Shown: positions 2,674 through 12,771 of the stretch, one piece after another
Position numbering within the stretch: the first letter of the stretch is position 1
How the letters are laid out: the number at the start of each line of letters is the position of its first letter
Origin: a virus
Reading direction: 5' to 3' (one strand)
DNA: 13,486 nt
UHGV virus genome: UHGV-1760545
Notes under the pieces: generated by a model
The model's database searches: none
What the model saw: the letters and a program-made list of their open reading frames with translations, nothing else
Told to the model about the DNA's origin: nothing
Program-made: the position numbers and the translations under genes

Positions 2674-3574
2674 CCGAGCCTCCGGTCACGACGCGGTATT
2701 CGGTACAGAAAGACGCCTGCGTACTGTTGAGCACGATGTCGGCCAGCGGTGCAGCCAGTTCGACACGCTGCACGCCTTCCACATGCAAAGCGGCATAAAT
2801 GGCAGACAGACGGATGTCACGCCCCAGCCGGTGCTGTGCCGTGATATACGCTTCCAGTTTTTTCACGGCGGCAGCGCGGATGGGTTCGCTTTCGGGACCA
2901 GGGTAAAGGTAAAGCGTGGCGTTTATCTGGTATTCAACAATGGCGGCAGACTGCACGGTCACGCGGTCGGCCACCGGCCTGACGTCCTCGCCATTAAGGG
3001 CGTTACGCACCACGGCCAGCAGATCTTCGGATGCGACGCCGTTATTTTCACGTGACAGCACGGAGATAGTGACGCAGGCCGGAGACGGACTGGTGACAGA
3101 GATATCCGCGACACGCCCGTCGGCACTGCGACCATGATACTGATAGGCTCCCACCGACCCGGCGACGCTTAAGCCTTCAAACGCCTGCTGAATACGCAGA
3201 CGATAATCGGTGTCAGACTCCATCACTGCCGGTGTCGGCGGGATGGTCGAATCATCTGCCGGGGTGATAGTCAGGCGCGTGGTGTTGTAATTGGCACCAA
3301 TCACATCAAGGTCATTACCGGCGGCACAGGCCAGCATCACCGCCCGCGCAGCCTCATTCACACGCTGACGCCAGATAAGCTCACGATAAGCATTTTCCTC
3401 CAGCAGTTTGACGAGAGGCTCGGATTCCAGCGTCAGGGTACGGGCGACCGCCTCCTGCTGGTCTTCCGGGTAAAGGGAAATCAGTGTCGCCTTGCGTTCG
3501 GCAAGAATGGTTTCAAAGTCCAGCTCCTCGACCACATCCGGTGCGGGTAGCTGGTTCAGGTCGATAATCGGCAT
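2666..3574 (-). CDS. J: baseplate assembly protein gpJ (T4 gp6-like wedge protein)
   Basis: 302-aa ORF MPIIDLNQLPAPDVVEELDFETILAERKA...; ATG at 3574..3572; TGA at 2668..2666; position between W and I. Confidence 0.9.
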   Translation of the reverse strand: MPIIDLNQLPAPDVVEELDFETILAERKATLISLYPEDQQEAVARTLTLESEPLVKLLEENAYRELIWRQRVNEAARAVMLACAAGNDLDVIGANYNTTRLTITPADDSTIPPTPAVMESDTDYRLRIQQAFEGLSVAGSVGAYQYHGRSADGRVADISVTSPSPACVTISVLSRENNGVASEDLLAVVRNALNGEDVRPVADRVTVQSAAIVEYQINATLYLYPGPESEPIRAAAVKKLEAYITAQHRLGRDIRLSAIYAALHVEGVQRVELAAPLADIVLNSTQASFCTEYRVVTGGSDE

Positions 3575-4558: not shown

Positions 4559-4570
4559 AACGGGAAGGAT

Positions 4571-4592
4571 GCCGCCGGGTCATACCGGCGGC
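4571..4592. other. perfect GC-rich hairpin in the S-V intergenic gap (8-bp stem GCCGCCGG / CCGGCGGC, 6-nt loop)
   Basis: Read directly: gccgccgg-gtcata-ccggcggc. Lies 33 nt downstream of the S stop and 13 nt upstream of the V ATG on the minus strand; no U-run follows, so it is not a canonical intrinsic terminator. Confidence 0.5.
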
Positions 4593-4624
4593 AATGTGAC
4601 GATGAGGTGTCGGGAATGGCACAA

Positions 4625-9970: not shown

Positions 9971-10825
9971 TCAGCAGTTCGTCATCAGGGCGTCACCGCC
10001 ACCGCCGGTGGCCTTGCTGCGGCGCTGCTGGGTCAGACTTTCGGTATGGTCGAGGCTGTTTTTCAGGCGGGTGAATGCCTGGCTGGTTTCATCCGCCCTG
10101 TCAGCTACATCCTGCTTAAGTGCGGAAAAGGCGGTTTCCATCTCTGCGAGGCGCTGCTCAGTGGCGCTCAGTTTTTCCTGCACATGCTCAGCGACAGCGG
10201 TCACCGCTTCATGCACGTCATTCAGACGGGCGTCATCGCTGGCCTGTTTGCGGCCAAAAATGGATTTCACCTTTTCGGTCAGGGCTGTGAACACGGTTTC
10301 AGGCAGGTCTTCAAATTCCAGCTCAACAGGCGTTGCCACTGAAATCAGGTTTTCAGGGCTTAATTTGAAGCGGTTCAGGGGGTTGTGTTTTGCCGTGCGG
10401 CAGAATTCCAGGTATTCCGTGCCGAGGCTTGCCGGGTCATCGGTGACGGCCAGACCCACCAGATAACATTTGCCGGTGTTGGCAAAGTTCGGCTGAATTT
10501 CCATTGAGGTGTAGACCTTCTGCGCGGCCTTGTTCATCGCGATAAGGTCATCGGTCGGGGTGATTTTCGCAAACAGCGCCCATTTGCCTTTCAGCGCCGA
10601 ATCATCGTCAATCTTTTCGGCCTTCAGTTCGGCCACATCACCATAACGTTTAAAAATACCGTCAGGCAGGATGCCGCGCAGATGTTCCAGGTTAATACGG
10701 CAACCATAGACACGCGGGTCAAAGGTTTCGGCCATTTCCTGAATATCCTGCGCACTGATGACACGCCCGTCACAGGTGTCACCCTCAACGCCGATACGAA
10801 AGAATTTTGAGACTTTTTTTGCCAT
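9971..10825 (-). CDS. O: capsid scaffolding protein gpO (scaffold with N-terminal protease in P2)
   Basis: The track ORF 9971..10891 is over-extended. The ATG at 10825..10823 gives a 284-aa product MAKKVSKFFRIGVEGDTCDGRVISAQDIQEMAETFDPRVYG...; first gene of the leftward capsid operon. Confidence 0.9.
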   Translation of the reverse strand: MAKKVSKFFRIGVEGDTCDGRVISAQDIQEMAETFDPRVYGCRINLEHLRGILPDGIFKRYGDVAELKAEKIDDDSALKGKWALFAKITPTDDLIAMNKAAQKVYTSMEIQPNFANTGKCYLVGLAVTDDPASLGTEYLEFCRTAKHNPLNRFKLSPENLISVATPVELEFEDLPETVFTALTEKVKSIFGRKQASDDARLNDVHEAVTAVAEHVQEKLSATEQRLAEMETAFSALKQDVADRADETSQAFTRLKNSLDHTESLTQQRRSKATGGGGDALMTNC

Positions 10826-10998
10826 TGTCAGGAGTCCTGAATAGTGATTAGAGGAGTCACATGTCGGCATCAGTTTCCCGACGATGCGCATCCTCCGCCA
10901 TCAGTCCCGGATGGCTTATCACTGACACAACAGCACCTTAGCGAATCGCAGGGCGCGACTCAGTAGCCTTGCCGTGTATTCATCACGGCGAGGTATTC
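10826..10998. promoter_or_regulatory. divergent control region between O (leftward) and P (rightward); expected site of the activator-dependent late promoters P_O and P_P
   Basis: 173-nt gene-free gap between two divergent ATGs. It contains dyads GTCGG-N10-CCGAC (10863-10882) and GCCAT-N9-ATGGC (10897-10915), the perfect palindrome GATGCGCATC (10883-10892), and hairpin GCCGTG-tattcat-CACGGC (10971-10989) just upstream of the P ribosome-binding site. I could not find an exact TGT-N12-ACA match, so promoter positions are not assigned. Confidence 0.5.
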
Positions 10999-12771
10999 AT
11001 GACCATCACCACAGACACCACTCTTTTACACGACCCGCGTCGTCAGGCGGCGCTGCTGTACTGGCAGGGTTTTTCCGTGCCGCAGATTGCCGCCATGTTG
11101 CAGATGAAACGCCCGACGGTGCAGAGCTGGAAACAGCGCGACGGCTGGGACAGCGTTGCCCCCATCAGCCGTGTCGAAATGAGTCTGGAAGCGCGGCTGA
11201 CCCAGCTCATCATCAAACCGCAGAAAACCGGCGGTGATTTCAAGGAAATTGACCTGCTGGGACGCCAGATTGAACGACTGGCGCGGGTCAACCGCTACAG
11301 CCAGACCGGCAACGAGGCAGACCTTAATCCGAACGTCGCTAACCGCAACAAAGGCGGGCGGCGCAAACCGAAAAAGAATTTTTTCAGTGACGAGGCCATC
11401 GAAAAGCTGGAGCAGATTTTCTTTGAGCAGTCTTTCGAATATCAGTTGCACTGGTATCGCGCCGGGCTTGAGCACCGCATCCGCGATATCCTGAAATCCC
11501 GCCAGATTGGCGCGACGTTTTATTTTTCCCGCGAGGCGCTGCTGCGCGCCCTGAAAACCGGTCATAACCAGATTTTTCTGTCGGCCAGTAAAACGCAGGC
11601 GTATGTGTTCCGCGAATACATCATCGCCTTTGCCCGGCTGGTTGACGTTGACCTGACCGGTGACCCGATTGTCCTGGGCAATAACGGTGCAAAACTGATT
11701 TTTCTCGGCACCAACTCCAACACCGCACAGAGCCATAACGGCGACCTGTACGTCGATGAGATTTTCTGGATCCCGAATTTTCAGGTACTGCGTAAGGTGG
11801 CATCAGGTATGGCCTCACAGAGTCACCTGCGCTCGACCTATTTCTCCACCCCGTCCACGCTGGCGCACGACGCCTACCCGTTCTGGTCGGGTGAACTGTT
11901 CAACCGGGGACGCGCCAGCGCCGCCGAACGCGTGGAAATCGACATCAGTCATAACGCCCTTGCCGGAGGTCTTCTCTGTGCGGACGGCCAGTGGCGGCAG
12001 ATTGTCACCATTGAGGACGCCCTGAAAGGTGGCTGCACGCTGTTCGACATCGAGCAGCTCAAACGTGAAAACAGCGCCGACGATTTTAAAAACCTGTTCA
12101 TGTGTGAATTTGTTGACGACAAGGCGTCGGTGTTCCCGTTCGAGGAGCTGCAACGCTGCATGGTCGACACGCTGGAAGAATGGGAAGACTATGCGCCGTT
12201 TGCCGCCAATCCGTTCGGCTCCCGCCCGGTATGGATTGGTTACGACCCGTCACACCGTGGCGACAGCGCCGGATGCGTGGTGCTGGCACCGCCGGTGGTG
12301 GCCGGTGGCAAATTCAGAATACTTGAGCGTCACCAGTGGAAAGGCATGGACTTTGCCACCCAGGCTGAATCCATCCGCAAACTCACCGAAAAATACAACG
12401 TCGAATACATCGGTATTGATGCCACCGGCCTCGGTGTCGGCGTGTTCCAGCTCGTGCGCTCGTTCTATCCTGCCGCGCGCGATATCCGCTACACACCGGA
12501 AATGAAAACCGCAATGGTGCTCAAGGCAAAAGACGTTATCCGCCGTGGCTGTCTGGAATATGACGTCAGCGCCACCGACATCACCAGCTCGTTTATGGCT
12601 ATCCGCAAGACCATGACCAGCAGCGGACGCAGCGCCACCTATGAGGCCAGCCGCAGCGAGGAAGCCAGCCACGCCGACCTCGCCTGGGCGACCATGCACG
12701 CCCTGTTAAATGAGCCACTCACCGCCGGTATCAGCACCCCGCTGACATCCACCATTCTGGAGTTTTACTGA
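10999..12771 (+). CDS. P: terminase large / ATPase subunit gpP
   Basis: The track ORF 10969..12771 begins at an upstream TTG. The ATG at 10999, preceded by GAGGT, gives a 590-aa product MTITTDTTLLHDPRRQAALLYWQGFSVPQIAAMLQMKRPTVQSWKQRDGWD...; its TGA (12769..12771) overlaps the Q ATG. Confidence 0.92.
   Translation: MTITTDTTLLHDPRRQAALLYWQGFSVPQIAAMLQMKRPTVQSWKQRDGWDSVAPISRVEMSLEARLTQLIIKPQKTGGDFKEIDLLGRQIERLARVNRYSQTGNEADLNPNVANRNKGGRRKPKKNFFSDEAIEKLEQIFFEQSFEYQLHWYRAGLEHRIRDILKSRQIGATFYFSREALLRALKTGHNQIFLSASKTQAYVFREYIIAFARLVDVDLTGDPIVLGNNGAKLIFLGTNSNTAQSHNGDLYVDEIFWIPNFQVLRKVASGMASQSHLRSTYFSTPSTLAHDAYPFWSGELFNRGRASAAERVEIDISHNALAGGLLCADGQWRQIVTIEDALKGGCTLFDIEQLKRENSADDFKNLFMCEFVDDKASVFPFEELQRCMVDTLEEWEDYAPFAANPFGSRPVWIGYDPSHRGDSAGCVVLAPPVVAGGKFRILERHQWKGMDFATQAESIRKLTEKYNVEYIGIDATGLGVGVFQLVRSFYPAARDIRYTPEMKTAMVLKAKDVIRRGCLEYDVSATDITSSFMAIRKTMTSSGRSATYEASRSEEASHADLAWATMHALLNEPLTAGISTPLTSTILEFY

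Follow-up and report, generated by a model that had tools for sequence, protein, structure and literature searches.

The divergent late promoters PO and PP of phage P2 are silent until an activator contacts the alpha subunit of RNA polymerase, turning on both operons together. The pair was reportedly described by Christie and Calendar in 1983 and 1985, and the start annotation in the P2 record AF063097 presumably rests on nuclease mapping of that decade. For IS10, Davis, Simons and Kleckner are said to have described in 1985 an inverted repeat with its 5' arm located before the start at which the element itself is transcribed and its 3' arm over the ribosome-binding site, such that only longer transcripts fold. 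PMC13181058 cites that work on how folding back of read-through transcripts shields the IS10/Tn10 transposase from external promoters. The activator Ogr binds inverted repeats centred near -55 and requires the RNA polymerase alpha subunit (PMC3152322). Four P2 late promoters and a TGT-N12-ACA consensus have been described, together with a Stenotrophomonas relative in which the PP' and PO' sites are the same coordinates read in both directions (PMC3931495), and the record of phage 186 (NC_001317) annotates one B-protein site for 'activation of pV and p12 promoters'. Leaderless phage mRNAs form another described class, in which translation hinges on the exact transcription start; P2 gene V is an example, since AF063097 places the V transcript start on the V ATG. 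A paper on leaderless mRNAs cites Christie and Calendar 1985.

The window, by which we mean the whole stretch of 13,486 nucleotides analysed here, contains 173 non-coding bases from O to P (10826-10998). Gene O (capsid scaffold, gpO; 9971-10825, minus strand) has its ATG at 10825-10823, encodes a protein beginning MAKKVSKFF, and can be aligned with the O coding sequence of P2, whose start is AF063097 position 3167. Gene P (terminase large subunit, gpP; 10999-12771, plus strand) has its start codon at 10999 and begins MTITTDTT. The region has the position of a late-operon control region, lying between the scaffold and terminase genes of the head/packaging operons of a P2-like phage. Comparison with P2 (AF063097) revealed an intergenic region of the same length, 173 bp, identical at 172/173 bases; the sole difference, at 10950 (A in the window, G in P2), corresponds to PP -26 and lies outside every dyad. 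P2 PO/PP (AF063097 3016-3127) and the window also agree in their starts, -10 hexamers, activator site and hairpin. A search with 10700-11150 matched 145 phage records, 76 of them at an identity of at least 99%, phage P2 included. The intergenic region of one Escherichia prophage equals that of the window exactly, and in a second Escherichia prophage the sole difference from the window is at 10981, in the hairpin loop. The window and P2 are collinear at 97-98% identity; beyond the intergenic region they differ in orf30, which is present in P2 and missing in the window.

An earlier note on this DNA had proposed a divergent O/P control region of a P2-type phage, and both the 172/173 identity and the P2 annotation bear this out. 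Its description of the region as the only sizeable non-coding stretch was roughly right, apart from the 99-bp M-L gap of P2, which is expected in the collinear window as well. We conclude that 10826-10998 very probably holds the divergent late promoters PO and PP of a P2-type phage (Peduovirus), working as described for P2. An O/P control region with one common activator site is an already known and well-studied system; the identification made here recovers one classic activator-dependent divergent promoter pair and is, as a finding, ordinary.

Transfer of AF063097 feature 3057-3087 ('activator binding site; pO, pP promoters') placed the activator (Ogr/Delta) binding site of PO and PP at 10905-10935. 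Inside this annotated footprint, the sequence reads TGG-N12-ACA at 10912-10929, a core with 5/6 matches to TGT-N12-ACA; on the O strand it is TGT-N12-CCA, and the identical variant occurs in the P2 PF site. The core is a TGT-N12-ACA-type dyad at the expected distance of about 55 bp, its centre (10920.5) lying 55.5 bp upstream of the annotated PO start and of the annotated PP start alike. A single site for an Ogr-family zinc-finger activator, midway between the two starts, would serve both promoters; the ogr gene lies outside the window. As the earlier note had observed, exact TGT-N12-ACA is absent from 10826-10998, and our scan agrees. In the whole window the exact motif has one match (1987-2004, in the tail-fibre gene) against 3.25 expected by chance, and CTGTTGTG with one mismatch was found at chance-level frequency, so that motif scans alone miss the activator site. 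The note's suspicion that the consensus it used was imprecise proved justified, since P2's own PO/PP site is TGG-N12-ACA. Its suggestion of a non-textbook architecture, on the other hand, does not stand, as one site lies at -55.5 of both annotated starts; the apparent misfit with -55 arose because distances were taken from the start codons, which lie behind leaders of 40 and 23 nt, and because a perfect consensus was expected.

To compare the region among relatives, we aligned the intergenic regions of 56 Enterobacterales phages and prophages, whose P proteins share 58-100% identity. The right half-site of the activator site, CACAACAG (10926-10933), was invariant or nearly so in these relatives, and the left half varied between TGG, TGT and GTG. 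The annotated 186 B-protein site TGGACAACCGCCCACACAAC (20 bp) aligned column for column with window 10912-10931. The 186 pV/p12 region resembles the window in having divergent promoters with one activator site, a TGG-N12-ACA aligned with 10912-10929, and in carrying a TAGCCT hexamer and a hairpin over the ribosome-binding site. It differs in the length of the intergenic region, 165 bp owing to an O-side leader that is 8 bp shorter, in the left half and flanks of the activator site, in a C-C mismatch within the hairpin, and in the lack of the three dyads discussed below. Inspection of the region by eye revealed no good IHF-type (WATCAANNNNTTR) and no good Cox-box-type (TTAAAGNCA) sequence.

The PO and PP starts were transferred from the P2 GenBank annotation and are backed by comparative evidence. 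Through the 172/173 alignment, the PO transcription start (O operon) falls at 10865 on the minus strand (AF063097 position 3127), giving a leader of 40 nt, and the PP transcription start (P-Q operon) at 10976 on the plus strand (AF063097 position 3016), giving a leader of 23 nt. Both promoters exhibit a recognisable -10 hexamer and no good -35, the make-up of activator-dependent promoters, and a sigma-70 consensus scan reported neither PO nor PP. The PO -10 hexamer, GAAACT (10872-10877, minus strand), lies in the conserved block CAGTTTCC. The PP -10 hexamer, TAGCCT (10964-10969, plus strand), is included in the conserved block GTAGCCTTGC and is near-invariant in the 56 relatives, of which only L082 differs (TAGGCT). 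The bases for A-11 and T-7 are invariant in all 56 sequences, both in PP and in PO (10876 and 10872, respectively). Other conserved blocks in the alignment were (C/T)AGTTTC, which is the PO -10 on the opposite strand, TTAGCG in the PP -35 region (10938-10943, plus strand; -38 to -33), and the ribosome-binding sites. We also observed (A/T)T(A/G)GC at roughly -38 to -32 in all four P2 late promoters, as TTAGC in PP (10938-10942), as ATGGC in PO (10897-10901), and as ATAGC in PV and PF (10271-10275 and 17589-17593 of P2, L010), with the PO, PV and PF elements at about -37 to -33. In-frame start codons exist upstream of both genes, namely an ATG at 10889-10891 (minus strand), 22 codons before O, and a TTG at 10969-10971 (plus strand), 10 codons before P, and these give the longer O and P ORFs in the program-made list; as each precedes the annotated transcription start of its gene, neither is expected to be used.

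Dyads were counted if they had perfect arms of 5 bp separated by 0-12 nt; the region contained nine, at six centres, against a mean of 1.64 centres expected; six were reached in 0.4% of 2000 dinucleotide shuffles. The three dyads named by the earlier note are all present. Dyad 1, GTCGG-N10-CCGAC (10863-10882), spans PO -17 to +3, flanks the -10 hexamer and holds the PO start; dyad 2 is the palindrome GATGCGCATC (10883-10892) in the PO spacer, at -18 to -27; and dyad 3, GCCAT-N9-ATGGC (10897-10915), really has arms of 6 bp (GCCATC-N7-GATGGC). A further dyad, GCATC-N11-GATGC (10867-10887), had been missed, as had the palindrome TCAGGA-N1-TCCTGA (10828-10840, minus strand). The latter lies over the O Shine-Dalgarno AGGA (10836-10833), forms a 5-bp mini-hairpin within the native O leader, and is kept in most relatives as TCAGG(A/T)GTCCTGA. 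In addition, the PO -10 and start are located within a longer imperfect inverted repeat (10852-10896; GGAG...GTCGG / CCGAC...CTCC), and the direct repeat CATCAGT occurs at 10868-10874 and 10899-10905, 31 bp apart, each copy inside a CATC...GATG dyad. Read-through minus-strand RNA over PO would fold strongly, at -36 kcal/mol across 118 nt, but with an O Shine-Dalgarno accessibility of 0.31 either way.

The excess of dyads near PO (GATGCGCATC, GTCGG-N10-CCGAC and GCATC-N11-GATGC) might reflect operators for an extra protein that shuts PO, or a GC-rich block to opening without Ogr. The enrichment (P ~0.004) and the placement of dyad 1 around the PO -10 hexamer are in keeping with this idea, as is a double change (GTCAGG...CCTGAC) that preserves dyad 1 by compensation. 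This change is, however, limited to four Buttiauxella sequences, which probably represent one evolutionary event, and dyad 1, with 68% of cells paired in the 56 relatives, is missing in the 186 clade (GTCAAC...CCAGAC). Dyad 2 is not conserved, because its pairing (35% of cells in the 56 relatives) is at the level of the slid controls (32-42%). We know of no such additional regulator for the P2 late promoters, and we regard extra operators or an opening block at PO as improbable. Dyad 3 was paired in 64% of cells and its central pairs showed no double changes; the left arm falls within the PO -35 region, with invariant bases at C10898 and A10900, and the right arm extends over part of the activator site, in its left half, as no other arm of the three dyads does. 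None of dyads 1-3 is the activator site, and their conserved parts coincide with the PO -10, the -35 or the activator left half. The dyad excess is real, yet the symmetry, as judged from the alignment, is not conserved. Near-identity to P2, with an annotated activator site that is none of the three dyads, essentially amounts to one of the two outcomes that the earlier note had named as refuting its reading, although the PO start does lie in dyad 1 and the PP start in the hairpin.

Three comparative lines support the annotated PP start. At 10976, it lies 7 nt after the invariant TAGCCT hexamer. At PV of P2 the site centre (10252.5) and the start (10308) show a spacing of 55.5 bp, as in PO and PP, and at P2 PF this spacing is 55.5-56.5 bp. 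The end of the p12 promoter feature of 186 coincides with window 10976, 55.5 bp from the centre of the 186 B site. The ATG of P comes 6-7 nt after TAGCCT in Pectobacterium prophages and in Yersinia enterocolitica phages, which leaves no space for a ribosome-binding site, and no other in-frame start is available. The P ATG of Aeromonas, Halomonas, Plesiomonas, Paraburkholderia and other relatives is found 6-7 nt after a TAnnCT hexamer, and there, as in the Yersinia enterocolitica phages, it lies 55-57 nt from a TGT-N12/13-ACA dyad. The spacing of ATG, hexamer and dyad in these distant relatives independently fixes a start about 7 nt past the hexamer. P homologues of this apparently leaderless type occur in many P2-like prophages outside the P2/186 clade, Pectobacterium included (loci L007, L008, L049-L058 and L064-L090). 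On sequence grounds, the P genes of Pectobacterium, Yersinia enterocolitica phages, Aeromonas, Halomonas and others are apparently leaderless, and the 23-nt P leader of the P2/186 clade seems to have been inserted after a start that is itself conserved. The P gene of the window, with its 23-nt leader and a Shine-Dalgarno sequence, differs in this respect from the leaderless gene V of P2. An S1 or probe artefact at the stem-loop junction could in principle have produced the annotated PP start; we judged this unlikely in view of the invariant hexamer, the 55.5-bp spacing common to PV and PO, and the leaderless clades.

The inverted repeat across the PP start, CCTTGCCGTG-N7-CACGGCGAGG, extends over 10967-10993 (plus strand), with 10-bp arms at 10967-10976 and 10984-10993 that include one G.T pair. 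The earlier note had recognised its core, GCCGTG-N7-CACGGC at 10971-10989, and had let it end 1 nt before the GAGG of the P ribosome-binding site; the hairpin is present, whereas its end needs correction, as the 10-bp arms reach 10993 and cover GAGG. The 5' arm consists of the end of the PP -10 hexamer plus the discriminator (-9 to +1), and the 3' arm includes the Shine-Dalgarno GAGG (10990-10993). The heptamer TATTCAT occurs twice, in the hairpin loop (10977-10983) and at 10994-11000, where it runs into the P ATG. A search of 10700-11150 against Rfam 15 gave no match on either strand up to E = 1. As RNA, the 27-nt hairpin has a predicted folding energy of -17.1 kcal/mol (z = -7.1). The native transcript (10976-11035) is predicted to fold at only -5.9 kcal/mol (z = -0.2), and a transcript begun at 10960 at -20.2 kcal/mol (z = -3.8) with the Shine-Dalgarno sequence paired; the Shine-Dalgarno accessibility was 0.01 in the read-through form versus 0.30 in the native form.

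On a reading in line with the earlier note, the hairpin would belong to the P mRNA leader and throttle terminase translation, with the dyads as activator or operator sites in a non-textbook layout. That the hairpin is very stable and hides GAGG, that dyads are enriched, and that exact TGT-N12-ACA is absent would all suit such an arrangement. The annotated PP start is, however, the last base of the 5' arm, so that the two arms do not occur together in the translated mRNA; with the 5' arm at or upstream of the start, the native P mRNA cannot form the hairpin, essentially the second outcome that the note had named as refuting. Since this start agrees with the invariant -10, the 55.5-bp rule and the leaderless clades, since the annotated activator site is elsewhere (10905-10935), and since the region is 172/173 identical to P2, we consider modulation of native P mRNA translation by the hairpin highly unlikely. 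A P mRNA begun at PP would instead lack the 5' arm, leaving its ribosome-binding site open.

A stable stem in this position could also be an intrinsic terminator that stops transcripts from the O antisense side before P, and in two relatives (L053 and L057) UUUU does follow the stem (GAGGUUUUAUG). The tail of the window is UAUUCAU, however, and most relatives have CAUCAAUG or CAUCCAUG; a terminator scan reported nothing at 10967-11000. Termination at the hairpin thus appears very improbable.

Pairing of the hexamer end and discriminator with the Shine-Dalgarno region was found in 30/30 distinct leader-bearing relatives, with energies of -10 to -20 kcal/mol and z scores of -1.3 to -5.8. Read-through forms had a lower accessibility of the Shine-Dalgarno window than native forms in 40/40 sequences. 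The same comparison of the two transcript forms gave 0.31 against 0.31 for O and 0.59 against 0.51 for FI, which indicates that occlusion is not general to late promoters, as O and FI show no comparable effect. The fold-back geometry, with the 5' arm upstream of the promoter's own start and the 3' arm over the ribosome-binding site, was seen in the window and in all 30 distinct leader-bearing relatives. Counting against a selected function, both arms are also constrained by their roles in the promoter and the ribosome-binding site, and the relatives share ancestry. Several relatives form the hairpin through other registers or inner stems, namely TGCCCTC(AT)/(AT)GAGGGCA in Serratia, TCCCTCG/CGAGGGA in Edwardsiella, CCTCGT/ACGAGG in ENT4, and the inner stem GTTATC/GATAAC in one Buttiauxella.

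These observations suggest a fold-back safeguard. A longer transcript entering P from upstream, antisense to O, would fold back and hide the ribosome-binding site; terminase would then come only from transcripts begun exactly at PP, and clades without the leader would get the same outcome through a leaderless P mRNA. That the inverted repeat is kept so that read-through transcripts hide the P ribosome-binding site is a tentative reading, to which we assign somewhat less than an even chance. On the upstream plus strand, we found no promoter-like source of read-through beyond chance.

The hairpin may instead have no function of its own. It could be a by-product of two sequences that are each constrained independently, the -10/discriminator (CCTTGCC) and the Shine-Dalgarno region (GGCGAGG). 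It could also be left over from an inverted duplication by which the P2/186 clade gained the 23-nt leader together with its Shine-Dalgarno sequence. As AGG complements CCT, 4 bp of matching need no further explanation; the arms are nearly invariant, with almost no in-register covariation (RNAalifold on the fixed-register alignment gave a covariation term of -0.09). The leaderless relatives mark the leader as an insertion, and TATTCAT in the loop and before the ATG suggests duplication. However, when TAGCCTT, GAGG and ATG were held fixed in constrained shuffles, 25/30 sequences still folded better than 95% of the shuffles (p < 0.05), and Serratia, Edwardsiella, ENT4 and Buttiauxella keep a hairpin via the other registers and inner stems. 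A hairpin without its own function is the main alternative, and we give it about the same probability as the fold-back reading, somewhat below even.

The proposed fold-back safeguard would have its closest described counterpart in IS10/Tn10, whose inverted-repeat geometry matches that of the window. The window differs in that a phage late operon and not a transposase is concerned, and in that the 5' arm is the promoter's own -10 and discriminator. In the literature searched, primary P2 papers aside, no description of an IS10-like safeguard in a phage late operon was found. A wider proposal is that P2-like phages make translation of P depend on precisely where its transcript starts: most clades would be leaderless with the ATG at +1, 55-57 bp from the activator dyad, and in the P2/186 leader the Shine-Dalgarno sequence would complement its own -10/discriminator, so that transcripts started upstream fold and go untranslated. 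We regard this proposal as rather unlikely in its full breadth. If true, it would give P2 late control a fail-safe at the level of translation and make terminase synthesis dependent on the right promoter; in re-engineering of P2/P4 packaging, P placed under a foreign upstream promoter would be expected to yield little terminase.

The junction between S and V is the site at which the window lacks the orf30 module. There, 64 bp of the window (4559-4622) replace P2 9370-10307, which comprises the O-operon terminator, orf30 and the PV activator site, and the flanks of the junction share 97-98% identity with P2. The orf30-less junction is also present in WPhi, fiAA91-ss, pro483 and about 50 other phage records. 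Upstream of V, the window carries TGT-N12-ACC at 4623-4606 (minus strand), whose centre is 56.5 nt from the V ATG (4558); given this spacing, V in the window is probably leaderless, as annotated in P2. A GC-rich hairpin, GCCGCCGG-N6-CCGGCGGC (4592-4571), lies between TGT-N12-ACC and the V ATG, at the position expected for the PV core promoter.
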